DNA from: an uncultured archaeon
Lineage (GTDB): Archaea; Micrarchaeota; Micrarchaeia; Micrarchaeales; CABMGC01
Assembly (NCBI GenBank): GCA_963704435.1
Contig: OY969902.1
Span: 780,001 to 812,000, forward strand
Reading direction: 5' to 3'
Length of the DNA stretch: 32,000 nt
A model generated the notes under the pieces. It did no database searches, had not been told where the DNA came from, and saw nothing but the letters and a program-made list of their open reading frames with translations. Every line of letters starts with the position of its first letter. Positions within the stretch are counted from its first letter, which is position 1. A program made the position numbers and the translations under genes. Positions 15-21,869 of the stretch are shown here, one piece after another.

Positions 15-1109
15 CTATTGCCAGAAGTCCGATGACATCGCGTCATCGAGCTCACTCTTCAGGATATCTGGCATGTAGCCGTAGACGTTCTCGTACATTG
101 ACCTCGGGTCCGGCTTGAACTCCTTGGCCTTCTCGACCGCCTCGTCTATCTTGGCCAGCTGCTCCTCAGCCATCTTCTTCTCAGAATCATCATTCCAGAG
201 TCCCTTCCCAACGAGATACTTCCTAAGACGGTCTATCGGGTCCTTCTTGGCCCATTCAGCGACCTCGGCGTCTTCCCTGTACCTCGTCGGGTCGTCTGCA
301 GTTGTATGCATGCTCATCCTGTAAGTCACGCACTCTATCAGCGTAGGCCCGTCCTTGGCATTCTCTATCGCCTCTTTTGTCGCCTTGTATACCGCTATCA
401 CGTCGTTGCCGTCGACCTGTATGCACCTTATCCCGGCTGCGATGCCCTTCTGCGCTAGCGTCGCGGCAGCCGTCTGCCTGCTCCGCGGCACGGATATCGC
501 CCACTGGTTGTTCTCTATTATCGTGACGAGCGGCACCTTCCACACGCCAGCGAAGTTGAGCGCCTCGTAGAAATCGCCCTCAGAAGTTCCGCCGTCACCC
601 ACATAGGCGACGACCGCGGAATCCTCCCCGGCGTACTTCATCGCGAATGCCATCCCTGTGGCGTGCGGCATCTGCGTGGATACGGGCACGCATACGCACG
701 TCCCGTTAACGTCTTCGGGGCATCTGCTGCCGTCTTCGAACCCGCGCCAGTATATGAAGAAATTTTCGAGCGGGAAACCGCGGACCAGGAAGACGCCGTG
801 CTGCCTGAAGTTCGGGACGAAGAAGTCCTGTTTCCTCATGGCGAGCGCGCTCCCTATCTGGGTGGCCTCCTCGCCCACCAGCGGCGCATACGTTACAGCT
901 ATGCCCTGCCGCTGCAGGCTGAGCGCCTTGGCGTCCAGCGCCCTTGCAAACAGCATGTACTTCAGCATCTCAGTGAGCTTCGCGTCGTCCAGCTCCTTCG
1001 GAATGAGCGAGACGTTGGGAGTGCCGTTCTCGTCCAGCACCTGGAGATAGTCTATCGATCCCTCAAAGGCCTTGCCTGCCAGCGAAACACCGATTAGCAA
1101 TTGCAACAA
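15..1109 (-). CDS. 2-oxoacid (pyruvate/branched-chain) dehydrogenase E1 component, alpha subunit (TPP-dependent)
   Basis: 364-aa ORF. It has the thiamine-diphosphate motif GDGGTSEGDFYEALNFAGVWKVPLVTIIENNQWAIS (GDG...NN), a YRMSMHTTADDP loop and overall E1-alpha character. The longest start is TTG at 1109, with other TTG/GTG options in the first 25 codons. An ATG at 6..4 (minus), 8 nt after the TAG stop, looks like the E1-beta gene running off the window. Confidence 0.9.
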   Translation of the reverse strand: MLQLLIGVSLAGKAFEGSIDYLQVLDENGTPNVSLIPKELDDAKLTEMLKYMLFARALDAKALSLQRQGIAVTYAPLVGEEATQIGSALAMRKQDFFVPNFRQHGVFLVRGFPLENFFIYWRGFEDGSRCPEDVNGTCVCVPVSTQMPHATGMAFAMKYAGEDSAVVAYVGDGGTSEGDFYEALNFAGVWKVPLVTIIENNQWAISVPRSRQTAAATLAQKGIAAGIRCIQVDGNDVIAVYKATKEAIENAKDGPTLIECVTYRMSMHTTADDPTRYREDAEVAEWAKKDPIDRLRKYLVGKGLWNDDSEKKMAEEQLAKIDEAVEKAKEFKPDPRSMYENVYGYMPDILKSELDDAMSSDFWQ

Positions 1110-1187: not shown

Positions 1188-1745
1188 ATGAAAGGAAGCA
1201 AACTTCCCGAATCTGATCTTGAGGTAAGGCCTTCCAAGATATCTGGCAAAGGTATTTTTGCAAAAGTCGATATCAAAAAGGGTCAAACGATTTGCTTTCT
1301 TTCGGGCGAAAGAATATCTTTTGAAGAGGCAATAAAAAGGGGAAACGCTGGGACCGAAAATTTATCCGATTCATTACAAGTAGGCGAAGAGGAGTATATC
1401 GACCTTGACGAATTCTCAAGAATATTTAACCATTCTTGCAATCCAAATTCTTTTATTAGAGGCCAGAGTGAATTAATCGCCCTTAGAGATATAAAACGCA
1501 ACGAAGAGATAACTTACGATTATTCATCTACGATGGACGACAATTATAGGAACGCATCTAGAAGCATATGGACAAATAACTGCAATTGCGGCGCTAAGAA
1601 TTGCAGAAAGTCGATAGATCAATTCAGGGAACTGCCTAGAAAGATACAGGACTTTTATTTAAAGAATAGATACGCGCCCGACTTTATTCTAAGAAAGTTC
1701 AGGCTCAGCCCCCGCCGCTCTCGTATGAACGCATCATGCGGTTGA
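1188..1745 (+). CDS. SET-domain protein-lysine methyltransferase
   Basis: 185-aa ORF with an ATG start. SET motifs are present: GKGIFA, NHSCNPN, EEITYDY, and a post-SET Cys cluster CNCGAKNCR. The gene is about 40% GC against about 60% in the flanks. Its last 41 nt overlap the convergent permease gene. Confidence 0.85.
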   Translation: MKGSKLPESDLEVRPSKISGKGIFAKVDIKKGQTICFLSGERISFEEAIKRGNAGTENLSDSLQVGEEEYIDLDEFSRIFNHSCNPNSFIRGQSELIALRDIKRNEEITYDYSSTMDDNYRNASRSIWTNNCNCGAKNCRKSIDQFRELPRKIQDFYLKNRYAPDFILRKFRLSPRRSRMNASCG

Positions 1746-4427: not shown

Positions 4428-5573
4428 ATGAGGGACATAGCCTCCCTAGAGGTAAGCGTCGTGGTAGCTGAGCTTCGCGACCGGCTCGCCTCTGCGTTCT
4501 TCAAGAACTTCTACGAGCTGGGCGACGGCGCGTTCCTGCTCGCGCTGTCCAAGGAGCGCAAGGAGACCGACATCTACATCCGGCTCAACAAGACAGTGAA
4601 CGCCACATCGTTCAAGGAGCGGCCCCCCGAGCCGACGCAGTTCGCCAAGTCGGTCAGGGCGAAGCTCAGCGGGACGAGGATGAAGTCCCTGGAGCAGCAT
4701 GGATTAGATAGGATAGTGGTGATGGACTTCGAGGGGTCTGGTGGCGAGAGGCGGCTCGTGATAGAGCTCTTCGGCAAGGGCAACCTGCTCATCGTGGCCG
4801 GCAAGGACAGCATCACCGAGCTCGCCTACCGGAATGTGAGCTTCAGGGAGCGCGAGACCAGGAGGAACATGGTCTACGGCTTCCCCAAGAGCGGGTCCAT
4901 AGGGCCTGAGGAGATGACCCCAGAGGGCGTGGCGCACGTCGTGAAAGAGGTCAAGGGGTCGGAGGGCAAGCTGATATCAGAGCTGTCGAGGCGCATAGGC
5001 ATCGGGCCCATCTACATCGAGGACGTAATAGCGAGGGCGGGCCTGGACCCTAACGCGCCGGCGTCGGGTCAGGACATCGAGCGGAGCGGCATAATCAAGG
5101 AGATCCTAGCGCTGTTCAAAGCAGTTAAGGAGCCGTCGCCCCTGATTTACGTGAGCAGGCCGGACAACGCGTACGTTGACTTCGCGCTACTGCCGCTGCA
5201 GAAGTACAAGGGCAACAACGGCCTTGAGGAAATGGCGTTCCATGGCAAGTCCCAGCTGAACGACCTGCTGGACGAGCTCTACCTGAAGGAGAGGTCAACA
5301 GGCCTGGACAGCGCGAAGGCCGGCAAGATAAAGGAGCTTGAGTCGAGCATAGGCAAGCTTAGGAAACAGGCAGAGGAGCTGGACGGAAAGGCGGCGGAGT
5401 ACGCGGCCATTGGGAACCGGATATTCGAGCGCATGAACGACATCAACGCGCTGATAGCGCAGGCCAGGGAGTCAAGGCCCAAGAGCGCAAAGGACCTAGA
5501 GGGGATGCCAGGCATTATGGTCAAGTCCGTGGACCCCAAAAGCAAAACGATTAAAATAGAGCTTGCAGACTAA
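4428..5573 (+). CDS. NFACT-N/FbpA-family protein (Rqc2/NEMF-like), short form lacking NFACT-R
   Basis: The N-terminus has NFACT-N character (MRDIASLEVSVVVAELRDRL..FFKNFYELGDGAFLLAL...IYIRLN). A helix-hairpin-helix-like segment (SRRIGIGPIYIEDVIARAGLD) and a coiled-coil-rich tail follow. The ORF track starts at 4356, but ATGs at 4419 and 4428 fit the TATA spacing better. Confidence 0.7.
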   Translation: MRDIASLEVSVVVAELRDRLASAFFKNFYELGDGAFLLALSKERKETDIYIRLNKTVNATSFKERPPEPTQFAKSVRAKLSGTRMKSLEQHGLDRIVVMDFEGSGGERRLVIELFGKGNLLIVAGKDSITELAYRNVSFRERETRRNMVYGFPKSGSIGPEEMTPEGVAHVVKEVKGSEGKLISELSRRIGIGPIYIEDVIARAGLDPNAPASGQDIERSGIIKEILALFKAVKEPSPLIYVSRPDNAYVDFALLPLQKYKGNNGLEEMAFHGKSQLNDLLDELYLKERSTGLDSAKAGKIKELESSIGKLRKQAEELDGKAAEYAAIGNRIFERMNDINALIAQARESRPKSAKDLEGMPGIMVKSVDPKSKTIKIELAD

Positions 5574-15286: not shown

Positions 15287-16669
15287 ATGAAAGGAGTGCC
15301 GCCGAGAGTGGCGAAGGCGTTCGGAAGGCTCAGGGGGGAGAGCGCCGGCAGGGTGTACCTGAAGCTGATAAACGGCAAGCACTACGTATACAGGGAGTCG
15401 GGCACGTGGGACAAGGAGAGGAAGCGGGCGAGAGTGAAATCGGAGTACCTCGGAAGGATACTCGACGATGGCACCTACATAAAGAAGATCTCTTCGTACG
15501 GCGACGAGTTCGAGAGGGCGAAAGCGCTAATCCTCGAGCGGGGTGGGAAGGTGGTCTGGCCAGAGAAGATAGGGGAGACTGCGCTCCCGGAGCAGATTAA
15601 CCTGTCCGCGAGCGGGACGGATGCGAAACTGCTTATGGCGATGAGCATGAACGCCAGGGCCAGCTTCGCCGCGATGGGTAGGCTTGCTGGGCTGAGCCCC
15701 TCCGCGGCATACTCTCGCGTCAAGAACCTGGAGAAGCGTTATGGGATAAAGTACACTGCGGAGGTCGACCTGGACAAGCTCGGGTACATAACCTACCTCG
15801 TGCTGATAAAATTCCAGAAGGAGGTGCCTGGCCTGGAAAGCCTGAAGGCGGCGATGGCAAAGGATTCCAGGATCCAGCTCGCGTTCCTGACGAAAGGGGA
15901 GTATGACCTTATCATCTTTCTGCTCACGGAGAAGGGCGACGAGGGTGGGTTCAACCTGTACAAGACGAGGGAACTGATATTCCCTGATTACGACGCAAGG
16001 TGGTACCGCGCTCCTGTATACATCACATATAATTTCATTCCCCTACGGGAGGAGTTTTTCGAGATATTTAAGGAGCGGATATGGAAAAGATCGAAGGAGA
16101 ACCCGAAGCCGCCGGAAGGCAGCATCTCACACGGAGAATATTGCATCTTGTATGAGCTGGTCAAGAACGGAGTTATAGACTTTAGCGAGATCGACAGGAA
16201 ATACGGCTTTGACAAGGGGATGGCGCAATACACCTATCACCGGCTTAAGGAGAAACAAATCATAAAAAGGATTACGATTTCTATGACTAACCTCCCTCTG
16301 AAGTACTTGGCAGTTCTTTACATGGAGAATACCAACGACAAAAAATGGGAGGAGGCGAAGTCAAAGCTACTGGAGCACATAATCAAGGAAACGGATATGC
16401 CAACCGATCACTATGCCCTTGTGGGGGACGCCGGAACGCCGAATGGCTCTATTTTCGTCGTCCCGATATTCAGAGAAGAGGACCTTGGGAAAGCGGAGGA
16501 GGATCTAAGGTCCACGATAAGGGATTCCAGAGTCACGACTTCAATAGTTGCCGGAACGGTGGTCAATGCGCCTTGCTTCAGGAAGTTCGATAAGACCTAC
16601 TCGACGCAACATAAACGGCTTGTCATAAGCCATGGGCATAGCTCCCAATCCAAAATCAGATACGAATAA
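15287..16669 (+). CDS. Tandem Lrp/AsnC-like transcription regulator with an N-terminal extension of about 110 aa
   Basis: There are two HTH-plus-RAM-like modules. Module 1: TDAKLLMAMSMNARASFAAMGRLAGLSPSAAYSRVKNLEKRYGIKYTAEVDLDKLGYITYLVLIKF. Module 2: GEYCILYELVKNGVIDFSEIDRKYGFDKGMAQYTYHRLKEKQIIKRITISMTNLPLKYLAVLYM. I cannot assign the basic N-terminal segment (GRVYLKLINGKHYVYRESGTWDKERKRARVKSEYLGRI). Confidence 0.7.
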   Translation: MKGVPPRVAKAFGRLRGESAGRVYLKLINGKHYVYRESGTWDKERKRARVKSEYLGRILDDGTYIKKISSYGDEFERAKALILERGGKVVWPEKIGETALPEQINLSASGTDAKLLMAMSMNARASFAAMGRLAGLSPSAAYSRVKNLEKRYGIKYTAEVDLDKLGYITYLVLIKFQKEVPGLESLKAAMAKDSRIQLAFLTKGEYDLIIFLLTEKGDEGGFNLYKTRELIFPDYDARWYRAPVYITYNFIPLREEFFEIFKERIWKRSKENPKPPEGSISHGEYCILYELVKNGVIDFSEIDRKYGFDKGMAQYTYHRLKEKQIIKRITISMTNLPLKYLAVLYMENTNDKKWEEAKSKLLEHIIKETDMPTDHYALVGDAGTPNGSIFVVPIFREEDLGKAEEDLRSTIRDSRVTTSIVAGTVVNAPCFRKFDKTYSTQHKRLVISHGHSSQSKIRYE

Positions 16670-16880
16670 GACACGAATAAAAAGAATATCTCGCTAAAAT
16701 GCCACTAATCATGCAGGCATTCAGTTCCCACATCTATCTTGTTCCGTCCATCCAACTCACATAGAAATTTCAACGTACTATTTTAAAAGACTTTCGAAAA
16801 GCTCCGCGTGATGAAACTCAGCCGCATCCTGCACGATTTTGGGAACTACTTAGCCTTAAATAAGTAAGCGTTCCATAACC

Positions 16881-16895
16881 TATAACTCAGTTATA
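16881..16895. promoter_or_regulatory. Perfect 15-bp palindrome TATAACT-C-AGTTATA (TATA box and candidate operator) upstream of the suf regulator
   Basis: Read directly from the sequence. It ends 9 nt before the TTG start at 16905. An extra ATAAC half-site lies at 16874-16878. Confidence 0.5.
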
Positions 16896-16904
16896 AGTGA
16901 TCCA

Positions 16905-17273
16905 TTGCCGAGCAAGTACGAGACCGCATCAGACGAGGCAGTTCCCATCGCCAGGTCGATAATCGCCAGGGAGCTGGTGGGGAAGTACAAGCTCAATGAG
17001 ACCGAGGTTGCGGGCTACCTCGGCGTCGCCCAGGCCGCGATAAGCAAGTACGTGCGGAAGAAGTACTCGCGCAAGCTCAACAAGAGGATAGCAGAGATCG
17101 AGGCGCAGATCGAAGCCCACCGCAAGCCGATCGATCTCTACATAGAGAAGATCTCTGAGGGCAAGAAGGAGTACGTGAGCATCTGCATCTGCACCCTCTG
17201 CAAGTCGATAAACGGATTCCCGTGCAAGTTCTCCAAGGCGGACGCATATGAGGGGTCGGCGTCCACCACATGA
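16905..17273 (+). CDS. HTH (XRE-like) transcription regulator with a C-terminal Cys cluster
   Basis: HTH segment LNETEVAGYLGVAQAAISKYVRKK. C-terminal CICTLCKSINGFPC (C-x-C-x2-C-x7-C). The TTG start is forced, since the ORF contains no ATG codon. It ends 9 nt before sufB, with a GAGGG Shine-Dalgarno-like sequence in between. Confidence 0.7.
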   Translation: MPSKYETASDEAVPIARSIIARELVGKYKLNETEVAGYLGVAQAAISKYVRKKYSRKLNKRIAEIEAQIEAHRKPIDLYIEKISEGKKEYVSICICTLCKSINGFPCKFSKADAYEGSASTT

Positions 17274-17282
17274 GGGTTCCTG

Positions 17283-18692
17283 ATGTCCAAACGAAGGCAA
17301 GACGCGTTCGGAACTGGAGACTACAAGGAGAAGTACGGATTTTCCACGCGCGCCGAATACTTGGAATTCGAGAGGGGCCTGTCCGAGTCCGTCGTTAGGA
17401 GAATATCAAAGCTGAAGGGGGAGCCGAAGTGGATGCTGGGCAAGCGGCTGCTCGCCTACAAGGTGTTCGAGAGCAAACCGGTTCCCGAATGGGGCGCCGA
17501 CCTGAAGGGCCTCAACCTCCATGGCATGCAGTACTACAAGATGCCGAAAGCGGACGAGACCAATGACTGGGACAAAGTCCCCCTTGAGATAAAGAGGACG
17601 TTCGAGAGGCTGGGCGTGCCCGAGTCGGAGCGGAGATTCTTCGCCGGATCCGAGGCACAGTTCGACTCAGGCGTCGTATATGCGAGCGCGAACAAGATGC
17701 TAAGCGATTTGGGAGTAGTGTTCGTTGATACAGATACCGCGGTAAAGAAATATCCTGACTTAGTGCGGAAATACTTTGGAACTGTCATTCCGCCTACTGA
17801 CAACAAATTTGCCGCGCTGAACACGGCAGTGTGGTCCGGCGGATCGTTCGTTTTCATACCGAAGGGAGTCAAGGTTCCCATACCTCTCAACGCGTACTTC
17901 AGGATAAATGCTGAGCGTTTCGGCCAGTTCGAGAGGACGCTGATAATCGCGGACGAGGGGTCGGAGATTACGTTCGTTGAGGGATGCACTTCCCCCGTAT
18001 ACACGAGCAGTTCGCTGCACGCAGGTGTTGTCGAGTTGATTGCGAACAGGGGTGCGCACATAAGGTATGCGACCGTCCAGAACTGGTCGAAGAACATCTA
18101 CAACCTCGTTACGCAGCGTGCGCACGTTCACGAGGACGCGCACGTCGAGTGGATTGACGCCAACATAGGCAGCAAGACGAACATCAAGTACCCATCCGTT
18201 GTGCTGAAGGGCAGGCGCGCGAAGGGAGAGATACTCTCGGTCGCGCTAGCTGGCGAAGGCCAGGAGCAGGACAATGGCGGCAAAGCCTACCATCTAGCTC
18301 CGGGCACGACGTCGCGGATTGTTTCCCGGAGCGTCTCGAAGGGCAGCGGCGTCGCCACGTTCAGGGGCCTGGTGCATGTCGGCGAGGATGCCGCGAACTC
18401 AAAGTCGAGCACCGAATGCAGTTCGCTGCTGCTCGACCCTCGCGCGAAGGCAAACACATATCCCTACATCGAGGTGGACAGGGACGATGCGCTCGTCAGC
18501 CACGAGGCCAGGGTCGGGAGGATAGGCGACGACGAGCTATTCTACCTGATGTCCAGGGGAATAACTGAGGGCGACGCCACTGCGATGATAATACTGGGCT
18601 TCATAAGCGACCTGACGAAGGCGCTGCCGATGGAGTACTCGCTGGAGCTGAAGAGGCTCATAAAGATGGACATGGAGGGCGGAGTGGGATAG
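17283..18692 (+). CDS. sufB: Fe-S cluster assembly scaffold SufB
   Basis: 469 aa with typical SufB blocks (FVFIPKGVKVPIPL, EGCTSP, NWSKNIYNLVTQR, the C-terminal DELFYLMSRGI..A..MII.GF). Confidence 0.93.
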   Translation: MSKRRQDAFGTGDYKEKYGFSTRAEYLEFERGLSESVVRRISKLKGEPKWMLGKRLLAYKVFESKPVPEWGADLKGLNLHGMQYYKMPKADETNDWDKVPLEIKRTFERLGVPESERRFFAGSEAQFDSGVVYASANKMLSDLGVVFVDTDTAVKKYPDLVRKYFGTVIPPTDNKFAALNTAVWSGGSFVFIPKGVKVPIPLNAYFRINAERFGQFERTLIIADEGSEITFVEGCTSPVYTSSSLHAGVVELIANRGAHIRYATVQNWSKNIYNLVTQRAHVHEDAHVEWIDANIGSKTNIKYPSVVLKGRRAKGEILSVALAGEGQEQDNGGKAYHLAPGTTSRIVSRSVSKGSGVATFRGLVHVGEDAANSKSSTECSSLLLDPRAKANTYPYIEVDRDDALVSHEARVGRIGDDELFYLMSRGITEGDATAMIILGFISDLTKALPMEYSLELKRLIKMDMEGGVG

Positions 18693-18700
18693 GCGGTTGC

Positions 18701-19870
18701 ATGGATCACGAGAGAATGCTTGAATTCGCTGCGCAGGAGCGCTGCAGGATATCCGAGGAGACCGCGGGTCTGTACAAGAGGCACACCCTGCCCGCGGAGG
18801 TGCCAAAGGCAGGGAAGCTCGCGGCTTCGGGAATCCTTGAGGGTCTCAGGAAATCGATTGCCGCGGAGTCGCGGCTGCGCTTCGACCTGGTCTACGACGG
18901 GACGGAGTTCTCTTGCGGCAGCGACCTTGTCAGGGTCATCAGGAAGGCCCGCAAGCCCGGTGCCGGAAGCGCGATAGTAGTGGAGGTGCCAGAGGATGAA
19001 AGGGTCAGGCTCAATTTTCTGATTCTCTGCGGCGTAAGCCTGCCGCTCGAGATTGCCGTGGGCGCCGGACGCGGCTCCACCCTGAGCCTGTTCGAATGGT
19101 ATGGATCAGCGCCAAGTGCCGCCGGGGCCGTCGCGGCGGTGCGCGCTGTCGATGCAGGCAGGGGCTCGAGCGTCGAGATAAGCGCGCTGCACAACGAGGG
19201 GGGAGAAATGTCCGTCGAGTCCACGTGCAGCGTCGTCTCTCACAGCCATGCTCACGCGGTGTTAAACAACGTGCACATCGGCGGGAGCACGACCCGCTCA
19301 GTATCAATCGCCGATGCCGAGGGCGAGGGGAGTTCTGTCTCCGTGAACGACATGGTCTTCGGCGCAGCTAGCCAGAAGTTCGATCTCCTCTCCGTCATCT
19401 CGAACTCCGCTCCAAGGACCAGGGCGCTCATCCGATCGAGCTGCGTGCTTGCCGGAACATCGTCTTCGATGCTCAAGGGGAACGCCAGGGTCGCGAAGTC
19501 CGCAAGGGGCTCGGTCTCGCGCGTCGAGCAGCGGGGCCTGCTCCTTGACCCAGCGTCCCGGGCGCAGCTGCTCCCCGACATGTCCGTGGCCTGCGGAGAG
19601 GTGGAATCCGCATCGCACGGCGCCAGCGTCGCGCCGATCGACGACGACGAGCTCTTCTACATGATGTCGAGGGGCGTGGATGCGGCGAAGGCAAGGCAGA
19701 TGTTCGTCTCCGGCTTCCTTTCCAAAGGCCTCTCCGGCGTGGGAAGCGATACCGTTAAAGAGGTTGCAATTTCAATGATGCTCAACAAGTTCGGCAGCGG
19801 AAGGCAGTCCGGATCCCCGAAGATAAGCGCGAGGGACGTCTGGGCCGCGCCAGCGGGTGGATCGCGATGA
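18701..19870 (+). CDS. sufD: Fe-S cluster assembly protein SufD (SufBD family)
   Basis: 389 aa. The beta-helix-like repeat region and the C-terminal DDDELFYMMSRGVDAAKARQMFVSGFL are characteristic of SufD. There is an ATGA overlap with sufC. Confidence 0.85.
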   Translation: MDHERMLEFAAQERCRISEETAGLYKRHTLPAEVPKAGKLAASGILEGLRKSIAAESRLRFDLVYDGTEFSCGSDLVRVIRKARKPGAGSAIVVEVPEDERVRLNFLILCGVSLPLEIAVGAGRGSTLSLFEWYGSAPSAAGAVAAVRAVDAGRGSSVEISALHNEGGEMSVESTCSVVSHSHAHAVLNNVHIGGSTTRSVSIADAEGEGSSVSVNDMVFGAASQKFDLLSVISNSAPRTRALIRSSCVLAGTSSSMLKGNARVAKSARGSVSRVEQRGLLLDPASRAQLLPDMSVACGEVESASHGASVAPIDDDELFYMMSRGVDAAKARQMFVSGFLSKGLSGVGSDTVKEVAISMMLNKFGSGRQSGSPKISARDVWAAPAGGSR

Positions 19871-20592
19871 TTCTAGAGATAAGGGACCTGCATGCGGGGG
19901 TGGAGGGCCGAGAAGTGATAAAGGGCCTGAGCCTCAAGATACGGAGCGGAGAGTTCCACGTGCTGATGGGCCCGAACGGCTCCGGCAAGACCACGCTGTC
20001 CAACGCGATAATGGGCCATCCGCGAGTGAAGATCACAAAAGGCAGGATACTCGTCGACGGGAAGAGCATACTCGGGCTGGCAACCGACGAGCGGGCAAGG
20101 CTCGGCTTGTTCCTCGAGTTCCAGAATCCCATCGAGATCGAGGGGCTCGGCCTCATGAATTTCCTGAATAGCGCAAAGGCATCCGTGTCCTCAGGCACGT
20201 CTTTCAGGGGACTGATAGAGGAGGCGAGGTCCGCCGCCGCAGGGCTAAACATGAAGGAGGATCTGATGGGCCGGTCGCTCAACTACGGTTTCTCCGGAGG
20301 AGAGAAGAAGAAGATGGAGATTCTCCAGATGCTGCTGCTCAGGCCGAAGATTGCGCTGCTGGACGAGCCCGATTCGGGGCTCGACGTCGATGCCGTGAAA
20401 GCGGTGGCGGAGAACATAAGCAGGTTCCAGAAGGAGACGGGAGCGGGAATCCTCCTCATAACGCACTATGCGAGGATACTCAACTACCTTAAGCCGAGGT
20501 ACGTGCACGTGCTTTCCGACGGAAGGATAGTCAAGGAGGGCGGCCCAGCTCTGGCCGCGGAGATAGAGAAGAAAGGATACATGTTCAAGTGA
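19867..20592 (+). CDS. sufC: Fe-S cluster assembly ATPase SufC
   Basis: Walker A GPNGSGKTT, signature FSGGEKKK, Walker B LLDEPDSGLD and H-loop ITHY are present. Confidence 0.95.
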   Translation: MILEIRDLHAGVEGREVIKGLSLKIRSGEFHVLMGPNGSGKTTLSNAIMGHPRVKITKGRILVDGKSILGLATDERARLGLFLEFQNPIEIEGLGLMNFLNSAKASVSSGTSFRGLIEEARSAAAGLNMKEDLMGRSLNYGFSGGEKKKMEILQMLLLRPKIALLDEPDSGLDVDAVKAVAENISRFQKETGAGILLITHYARILNYLKPRYVHVLSDGRIVKEGGPALAAEIEKKGYMFK

Positions 20593-20624
20593 TATCATGC
20601 CAGGTTTCGGTGCACAGTGATATT

Positions 20625-21869
20625 ATGAATGGTTTCAGCGTAGAGAGGGTTAGGAGGGACTTTCCAATACTAAAGCGGAAGGTGAATGGCAAGAGACTAG
20701 TATACTTCGACAACGCTGCCACATCACAGAAGCCGAGGCAGGTCATAGACGCAGTTACAAGCTTCTACGAGACCTACAACGCCAACATACACCGCGGAAT
20801 GTACAAGATGGCGGAGGAGGCCACCGTCGCCTACACGGACTCGAAAACGCTGGCAGCTAAGATGATAAATGCGGGCTCGTACAGGAGCATAATCTACCTG
20901 AGAAACACGACCGAGGCGATAAACCTCGTGGCCAGGACCTGGGCCGAGGAGAACATATCCAAAGGCGACCGCATACTCCTCACCGAGATGGAGCACCACA
21001 GCAACATAGTTCCGTGGCAGATGCTCGCTAAGAGGAAGGGCGCGGTCATCGACTACGCGAAGCTCGAGGACGAAAAGTTCGTCGACATGGAGGACTACGG
21101 AAGGAAGCTAGAGCGCAAGCCGAAGCTGGTCTCGTTCTCGCACGTCTCGAACGTGCTGGGCACGATAAACGATGCGAAGAAGATGACCGACATGGCGCAC
21201 AAGGCCGGCGCAATCGTCATGGCGGACGCGGCGCAGTCGGTGCCGCACATGCCTGTCGACGTAAAGTCTATCGGCTGCGACTTCATGGCCTTCTCCAGCC
21301 ACAAGATGCTCGGTCCGTCGGGCGTCGGCGTTCTTTATGGGAGGGAGGAGCTTCTTGACGCGATGCCGCCGTTCCTCGGAGGAGGCGACATGATAAAAAG
21401 CGTGACCTTCAGGGGAGCGGAGTGGAACGAGCTCCCGTGGAAGTTCGAGGCCGGGACGCAGAACATAGAGGGAGCGATAGGTTTCGGAGCCGCTGTGAAA
21501 TATCTCACAAAACTAGGGATGGCTAGCGTGAGGCGCCACGAGATCGAGCTGACGCGCTACGCGCTCGGCGAGCTCTCCAAAGTAGATGGCGTTGAGATAT
21601 ACGGCCCTAGCGCGAACGAGATCGATAGGAAGTCGGGGGTAATTGCTTTCAGCGTGAAGAGCGCGCCGTCCCACGACGTCGCGACGATATTCGACAGCGA
21701 GGGCATAGCCATAAGGGCGGGCCACCACTGCGCGATGCCCCTGGTGAAGAGCGTGCTGCACCGCGAGGGAGTGCCGCGGATGAGCTTCTACATCTACAAC
21801 ACCGAGGGCGAGGTCGACAAGGCAGTCGGAGCGATAGCCAAGGTAAGGAAAGTTCTTCGCATAAGCTGA
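20625..21869 (+). CDS. sufS: Cysteine desulfurase SufS (class II aminotransferase V)
   Basis: FDNAATSQKP, HHSNIVPW, the PLP-Lys SSHKMLGPSGVG and the catalytic Cys RAGHHCAMPL are present. The ATG at 20625 is preferred. A GTG at 20589 that overlaps the sufC stop is an alternative start. Confidence 0.92.
   Translation: MNGFSVERVRRDFPILKRKVNGKRLVYFDNAATSQKPRQVIDAVTSFYETYNANIHRGMYKMAEEATVAYTDSKTLAAKMINAGSYRSIIYLRNTTEAINLVARTWAEENISKGDRILLTEMEHHSNIVPWQMLAKRKGAVIDYAKLEDEKFVDMEDYGRKLERKPKLVSFSHVSNVLGTINDAKKMTDMAHKAGAIVMADAAQSVPHMPVDVKSIGCDFMAFSSHKMLGPSGVGVLYGREELLDAMPPFLGGGDMIKSVTFRGAEWNELPWKFEAGTQNIEGAIGFGAAVKYLTKLGMASVRRHEIELTRYALGELSKVDGVEIYGPSANEIDRKSGVIAFSVKSAPSHDVATIFDSEGIAIRAGHHCAMPLVKSVLHREGVPRMSFYIYNTEGEVDKAVGAIAKVRKVLRIS

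Follow-up and report, generated by a model that had tools for sequence, protein, structure and literature searches.

The first gene of the suf operon in a tiny archaeon's genome encodes a small helix-turn-helix (HTH) protein with a cysteine-rich tail, and a palindrome lies immediately in front of it. This arrangement raises the question of whether the protein controls the Fe-S assembly genes that follow it, through which DNA site it might do so, and to what signal it might respond. To our knowledge, the control of Fe-S cluster biogenesis in archaea is essentially unknown, and the regulators that have been characterized (IscR, SufR, RirA, and RisR) are bacterial. A first-pass annotation of the window (the whole 32,000-nucleotide stretch of DNA analyzed here), made without database searches, had proposed an Fe-S-sensing repressor. 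The best explanation of the evidence as a whole is that the 122-aa protein is an autoregulated, Fe-S-responsive repressor of the operon formed by its own gene, sufB, sufD, sufC, and sufS, and we give this reading a probability of about 0.6.

The regulator gene and the suf operon

The regulator gene is followed by sufB, sufD, sufC, and sufS, in that order, in a genome of 853 kb (Table 1). As the annotation had it, the HTH protein is 122 aa long and is encoded on the same strand as sufB; the ORF was confirmed in the window, and 9 nt separate its stop codon from the sufB ATG at 17283. The TTG start can also be upheld: the N terminus (MPSKYE) is conserved, and in homologues a TTG or ATG start codon occupies the corresponding position. 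The Shine-Dalgarno-like GTGATC in front of the TTG presumably acts as a ribosome-binding site through complementarity to the 3′ end of the 16S rRNA, and relatives carry purine-rich GGTGAT, GGAGG, or GGGGA in its place. GAGGG at 17272 to 17276 is a possible ribosome-binding site of sufB. The longest sufS ORF begins at a GTG (20589), giving a 4-nt overlap with sufC; the alignment with homologues does not extend upstream of the ATG at 20625, which is therefore probably the true start.

Table 1. Positions of the predicted promoter, regulator, and suf features in the window
Feature	Position	Strand	Remarks
Predicted TATA box, TTAAATAA	16856..16863	+	A/T-rich box conserved across 48 aligned promoters
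Candidate operator TATAAC-TCA-GTTATA, TATAACTCAGTTATA	16881..16895	.	Covers the predicted transcription start (~16884-16888)
Shine-Dalgarno-like GTGATC	16897..16902	+	2 nt before TTG; read from sequence
Regulator gene	16905..17273	+	XRE-type HTH (residues ~32-50), central helix (56-84), C-terminal Cys helix
Helix-turn-helix, residues 32-50, ETEVAGYLGVAQAAISKY	16998..17054	+	Recognition helix with VAQAA-S-Y
Cys motif C94-x-C96-x2-C99-x7-C107, CICTLCKSINGFPC	17184..17225	+	Presumed metal or Fe-S site
sufB	17283..18692	+	PF01458 SUFBD_core, E = 2.9e-82
sufD	18701..19870	+	PF01458, E = 1e-44
sufC (ABC ATPase)	19867..20592	+	PF00005 ABC_tran; conserved synteny
sufS (class-V aminotransferase/cysteine desulfurase)	20589..21869	+	PF00266 Aminotran_5, E = 1.1e-140

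The product of the gene located 5′ of the regulator (15287 to 16669) is 460 aa long and contains an AsnC-type HTH (PF13404, residues 111 to 149). This gene is conserved upstream only in the two closest relatives (L001 and L002), so we do not regard it as part of the system. The SufB protein of the window has no intein. At locus L005, SufB (L005:4314-6977) carries an intein with Hint and LAGLIDADG homing endonuclease domains, and SufB matches are split in about 10 of 40 related genomes, as they are in the groundwater contig L139.

Protein family, fold, and conserved cysteines

Scans of the 122-aa protein against Pfam and NCBIfam gave no model at cutoff. The best matches were HTH_3 and Cro (E = 0.016), with a score against HTH_3 (PF01381) of 15.6 bits for a cutoff of 23. 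Several homologues reached through the family profile do pass the HTH_3 cutoff (P0056, 32.5 bits; P0049, 30.1 bits; P0151, 26.1 bits), which indicates an XRE-type DNA-binding domain. The AF2 model, which is of medium confidence (pLDDT of 76), is all-helical, with helices at residues 4 to 26, 32 to 39, 43 to 50, 56 to 84, and 89 to 103, and the Cys tail is modeled without a metal. The helices at 32 to 39 and 43 to 50 make up an HTH with a conserved recognition helix, in which V41, A42, Q43, A44, A45, S47, and Y49 are invariant among 49 sequences; Q43, S47, and Y49 are nearly invariant across 141 representatives of the wider superfamily. Foldseek comparison of the model with the PDB gave no match at an E value of ≤0.001 and no more than a weak local similarity to NsrR (E = 2.4); sequence searches of the PDB with the single sequence and with the profile returned nothing meaningful.

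Searching 1.8 billion representatives with the family profile yielded 794 relatives. The close homologues form a compact family and come almost entirely from Micrarchaeota metagenome-assembled genomes (MAGs). Sampling across the phylum showed the family in 49 of the 53 genomes from the window's taxonomic family and in 61 of the 75 from the sister family, with a patchy occurrence elsewhere. No description of the regulator family was found in the literature searched, where COG2522, which we take to be a possible name for it, led to one irrelevant paper.

The C-terminal cysteines are the feature on which Fe-S sensing was proposed, and the annotation described them as a four-Cys cluster. Three of the four residues bear this out: all 48 Micrarchaeota sequences have C96, C99, and C107, which thus provide at least three conserved candidate cluster ligands, and C96 and C99 also dominate across the wider superfamily. 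The fourth does not, as C94 occurs in 37 of the 48 sequences and is missing from the other 11, suf-linked ones among them; a four-Cys cluster as originally stated is therefore ruled out. A lack of Cys conservation had been named as grounds for abandoning the proposal, and such variability was found at C94, with the other three residues being invariant. Among the same 48 sequences, Y5 and P14 show little or no variation. Across the superfamily alignment of 142 sequences (the 141 representatives plus the window protein), a Cys occupies residue 5 in 84 cases and a Tyr in 37, which suggests that the N terminus of the regulator may contribute to a metal site formed by the C-terminal Cys residues.

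A second paralogue of the regulator, of 110 aa, is encoded outside the window in the same genome (G000:C1:470790-471065; L085:3261-3593), just upstream of the glutamate dehydrogenase gene (gdh), and two copies are found in most genomes of the family. The paralogue keeps the HTH and an N-terminal Cys. We ruled it out as a member of the system, as it has no CxxC...C triad and adjoins gdh.

A conserved putative operator in front of the regulator gene

The annotation's perfect 15-bp palindrome, ending 9 nt before the TTG, is present with the symmetry described (7+1+7), and its conserved core has the form 6+3+6. Taken alone, TATAACTCAGTTATA is not beyond chance, as the window contains four palindromes of the 7+1+7 form compared with 2.3 in shuffled sequences. 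The decisive evidence is instead the conservation of the motif, which is far beyond chance. Of 48 related loci, 47 contain a single copy of ATAAC-N3-GTTAT, which in every case lies about 50 nt or less upstream of the regulator gene; the expected number across the same loci (400 kb) is 0.38. The operator motif of the 48th locus has a one-base defect. Within its own 853-kb genome, the motif occurs a single time. There is no copy between the regulator gene and sufB in any of the 48 loci, which, together with the 9-nt gap, argues for a single transcript running from the regulator through the suf genes.

A second palindrome, ATAACTGTTAT at 1151 to 1161, had been offered as a relative of the operator. 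The sequence exists and has the same half-sites, but its spacing is N1 compared with the invariant N3 of the operator, and on this basis we judged it to be unrelated. It lies in the divergent spacer between an E1-alpha gene (15 to 1109, minus strand) and a SET-domain gene (1188 to 1745, plus strand), and the SET-domain gene adjacent to it was found in 1 of 25 other genomes of the family.

Promoter geometry

In the annotation, the palindrome overlapped the only TATA-like sequence, and a dimer bound there was expected to block TBP and TFB. Both statements need to be revised. When 48 promoters are aligned on the operator center, an A/T-rich box appears at −33 to −24 from that center, and its counterpart in the window is TTAAATAA, separated from the operator by 17 nt. 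The presence of a separate TATA box at a conserved, fixed distance rules out the idea that the palindrome is itself the TATA box. The operator lies 17 to 20 nt downstream of the TATA box or, in some relatives, abuts it on the BRE side; there, some of the trans-acting sites abut a TTTATATA box on its upstream side.

Archaeal TATA boxes are usually centered near −26, and this places the predicted transcription start inside the operator. Because the operator covers that predicted start, the expected block is to the recruitment of RNA polymerase and not to the binding of TBP. The position of the operator is compatible with repression, given the predicted start, and the promoter geometry read from these sequences is that of repressors that exclude RNA polymerase.

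Linkage to suf genes and a candidate regulon

The annotation had called for a survey of other genomes for the family next to suf genes, and the survey bears out the linkage. Among the closest loci, which were identified by tblastn with the Suf proteins of the window, the regulator is followed by sufB, sufD, sufC, and sufS on one strand in 43 of 44. When loci were sampled through SufB alone, the regulator was directly upstream in 26 of 30, and the operator was found before 28 of the 30, with one site each (0.12 expected). Two of the SufB-sampled loci without an adjacent regulator have the operator at −35 and −37. Comparative genomics thus shows that the regulator gene, the operator, and the suf genes are linked, just as it shows the geometry of the promoter and the conservation of the cysteines.

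The same site is found where the regulator gene lies elsewhere in the genome. In five genomes with an unlinked regulator, all of which encode three-Cys variants, the operator is directly in front of sufB in each. In two of the five, whose suf genes are scattered, the site also occurs separately before sufD-sufC and before sufS; in three of the five it precedes a gene for an Fe/Mn superoxide dismutase (SOD). Three suf-linked genomes, in which the count for the reversed-pattern control was 0, have extra sites before a PF01883 Fe-S assembly (SufT-like) gene, a 4Fe-4S ferredoxin gene, and a radical-SAM/SPASM gene. The regulator is thus encoded with Fe-S assembly genes, and the operator is present in their promoters. 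Because the motif tracks Fe-S assembly genes with or without an adjacent regulator gene, we regard this distribution as the signature of a regulon. The five genomes with an unlinked regulator (G001 to G005) are AT-rich, and the motif is hardly more frequent there than the reversed control pattern, so the remaining sites in these genomes may be partly due to chance.

Two further sets of sites were observed. In two distantly related Micrarchaeota (L060 in G003 and L095 in G309), the operator precedes a gene for a protein of 108 to 112 aa without a Pfam match, which contains the conserved stretch FVxDAFKKCNVDxxNPxKEGLxxAMELCxxNTEKMLG and is possibly a member of the regulon. An operator-like site is also kept in G001 to G005 (loci L071, L077, L081, L063, and L072), in the spacer that separates the glycyl-tRNA synthetase gene from Nop5 or from a radical-SAM (HMPTM-type) gene; it may be functional or may have been inherited by chance.

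Occurrence beyond Micrarchaeota

The protein and the operator are also found together in other archaeal phyla. In a Thermoproteota MAG (L137), ATAAC-N3-GTTAT is located just upstream of the superfamily gene (L137:87-99), and in a Bathyarchaeia MAG (L138) the site (L138:3971-3983) is upstream of a superfamily gene flanked by ThiF and ThiI. The groundwater contig L139 has a site at L139:3978-3990 and the gene order regulator, sufC, sufB (with an intein), and sufD. On contig L140, the site (L140:4044-4056) precedes the regulator and then sufBDCS, and the called start of the gene is overextended across the operator. A Thorarchaeota (Asgard) locus (L086) has two sites flanking the gene, at 4499 to 4511 and 5473 to 5485. 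Since the protein-operator pair occurs in several phyla, next to suf as well as next to sulfur-transfer genes such as ThiF and ThiI, its reach appears to extend well beyond Micrarchaeota.

These loci raise a broader possibility, which we put forward tentatively: a pan-archaeal XRE family (DPANN, Thermoproteota, Bathyarchaeia, and Asgard) might serve as the long-missing archaeal sensor of Fe-S cluster and sulfur-trafficking status, with a labile Fe-S cluster held by three Cys residues and an N-terminal ligand, as a nonhomologous counterpart of IscR and SufR. Its members would share an N-terminal Cys or Tyr, a C-terminal CxxC...C, and one operator, ATAAC-N3-GTTAT.

Comparison with known regulators

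The systems closest to this one in function are SufR and IscR, and SufR resembles it in several respects. SufR (COG2345; Rv1460 in M. tuberculosis) is an autoregulated repressor with a palindrome in the suf promoter (PMC6034842; 10.64898/2025.12.26.696629), its [4Fe-4S] cluster is held by three Cys residues and a non-Cys Glu, and SufR-like COG2345 proteins have been predicted upstream of archaeal suf operons (10.64898/2025.12.26.696629, preprint). As in the cyanobacterial and actinobacterial systems, the regulator gene described here is first in or beside the suf operon, a palindrome is located in the suf promoter, three conserved Cys residues are accompanied by a variable fourth position, and negative feedback on Fe-S assembly is proposed. 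The proteins differ in that SufR, at about 220 to 250 aa, is about twice as long and has a winged HTH, a GRP AT-hook, and a separate sensing domain; its operators (CAAC-N6-GTTG or ACACT-N5-TGTGA) also differ from TATAAC-N3-GTTATA. No SufR model was matched at an E value of ≤1 in the NCBIfam and Pfam scans of the regulator, and there is no GRP in its 122 aa. The annotation's remark that an archaeal regulator of this type had not been characterized therefore holds for the family itself, of which the literature searched gave no description, but has to be qualified with regard to the predicted COG2345 proteins, which belong to a different family.

IscR, a [2Fe-2S] protein of the Rrf2 family with three Cys ligands and one non-Cys ligand, is likewise encoded by the first gene of an Fe-S assembly operon. 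Holo-IscR represses its own operon, its regulon includes suf and Fe-S proteins, and apo-IscR activates suf. The labile sensing clusters of both IscR and NsrR are held by three Cys residues plus another ligand position. The regulator shares with IscR its place at the head of the operon and the three invariant Cys residues. Unlike the regulator, IscR is a bacterial Rrf2 winged-helix protein with the motif C-x5-C-x5-C-x2-H; the regulator has C-x-C-x2-C-x7-C, gave no match to Rrf2 (PF02082) or to a TIGR model in the Pfam and NCBIfam scans, and, unlike apo-IscR, shows no sign of activation.

The short HTH, the proposed dimeric binding to a short palindrome, and the proposed autoregulation are features of XRE/Cro-C1 proteins (PF01381), although classical members lack a conserved Cys tail. 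In MqsA (TIGR03830), which belongs to a toxin pair, an N-terminal CxxC...CxxC zinc ribbon precedes the HTH, whereas the regulator has its HTH ahead of a C-terminal Cys triad. The score of the regulator against TIGR03830 was 13.9 bits, in the HTH part only, which is far from the cutoff of 61.8 and does not support membership. No toxin gene is located beside the regulator gene, whose neighbors are suf genes.

With regard to the promoter, the closest parallels are archaeal. The archaeal repressors MDR1, Phr, and LrpA bind at the TATA box or downstream of it. As with these proteins, the operator is located between the TATA box and the start, where TBP and TFB may bind and RNA polymerase would be excluded. 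MDR1, Phr, and LrpA (of the DtxR, wHTH, and Lrp families) are unrelated to the regulator and respond to other signals. Overall, the core of the annotation's proposal, a Cys-bearing HTH regulator of suf with its own operator and SufR- or IscR-like logic on a different, XRE-type architecture, stands up to the conditions set for refuting it, in view of the linkage to suf, an operator that tracks suf, and the three invariant Cys residues.

Proposed mechanism

On the basis of sequence comparison, the protein is very probably a repressor of suf that acts through TATAAC-N3-GTTATA. We infer DNA binding by the regulator, the sign of the regulation, and the nature of the cofactor. An XRE-type HTH dimer, probably formed via the long central helix, would bind the single palindrome. 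Bound at the predicted start, the regulator would keep RNA polymerase from being recruited; in relatives with the site on the BRE side, it would hinder TFB.

Fe-S sensing is suggested by analogy, since three invariant Cys residues with a variable fourth position resemble SufR, IscR, and NsrR, and we place the odds that an Fe-S cluster is the sensed cofactor at about even. The C96-x2-C99-x7-C107 triad would most likely hold a labile Fe-S cluster, with C94 or the conserved N-terminal Tyr5/Glu6 region as the fourth ligand. The cluster-loaded regulator would bind DNA. When clusters are scarce or are destroyed by oxidants, it would lose its cluster and leave the operator, and the suf genes would be derepressed, in relatives along with the genes for SOD, the SufT-like protein, ferredoxin, and radical-SAM proteins. 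One transcript would carry the regulator through the suf genes, with a negative feedback resembling that of SufR and IscR.

Alternative explanations

The three or four Cys residues could equally bind zinc or form a redox-active disulfide, and two alternatives follow from this. A thiol redox switch (a CxxC disulfide or a Zn-thiolate), in which the reduced protein represses and oxidation induces suf and SOD, fits the invariant CxxC pair (C96 and C99) and the operator on Fe/Mn-SOD in three genomes, and thiol-based archaeal regulators such as SurR are known. We consider it unlikely, as a metal site with three or four ligands would account better than a simple disulfide for the invariant C107 and for the presence of Cys or Tyr at residue 5 across the superfamily, and the regulon is centered on Fe-S assembly and Fe-S proteins instead of general antioxidant genes. 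The Cys motif could also be a structural zinc site only, in which case the protein would be an autoregulator or repressor of suf that answers to a ligand, a partner protein, or its own concentration. Cys4 or Cys3 zinc sites are common in small HTH proteins, there is a weak MqsA-type similarity, and neither the sequence nor the fold of the regulator matches any Fe-S regulator. Still, three invariant Cys residues with a variable fourth ligand are more typical of labile sensing clusters, and a regulon so tightly restricted to Fe-S-related genes suggests Fe-S status as the signal, which makes a purely structural role quite improbable. A holo-repressor would provide sensible feedback for suf and SOD. 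It is less obviously logical that Fe-S consumers (ferredoxin and radical-SAM proteins) should be derepressed together with suf. Also counting against an autoregulated Fe-S-responsive repressor are the HTH_3 score of the window protein, which is below the cutoff, the medium confidence of the AF2 model, and the variability of C94.

The remaining alternatives concern the DNA site. The regulator might be an activator or a dual regulator, like apo-IscR at the E. coli suf promoter, as the site is immediately upstream of the TATA box in some relatives, a position that can sometimes recruit TBP or TFB in archaea. This is very unlikely, given that all 48 of the regulator's own promoters place the site downstream of the TATA box and over the predicted start, which is the classical position for a repressor, and that the upstream variants abut the TATA box at the BRE, which favors occlusion of TFB. 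That the palindrome is a mere promoter element or a chance repeat, with the protein being something unrelated such as an XRE-type antitoxin, would be consistent with the near-random number of 7+1+7 palindromes in 32 kb and with the weak matches to antitoxin-type HTH families. The motif and the protein occur together in more than 75 loci from several phyla, however, next to a separate TATA box, and this explanation is effectively refuted. An antitoxin identity is itself ruled out by the lack of a toxin partner alongside the gene and by the strict synteny with suf.

Implications

Judged from sequence, the regulatory link among the suf genes, the operator, and the protein is strong. The protein, the 15-bp site, and the small, coherent regulon are specified well enough to allow a direct test. 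If the Cys triad holds a cluster, the protein would represent a new Fe-S sensor fold built on an XRE scaffold. In that case, feedback by a cluster-sensing repressor encoded at the head of its own operon would be an example of convergent evolution. The system would also offer a way into the study of regulation in DPANN archaea, whose cultivation is difficult.
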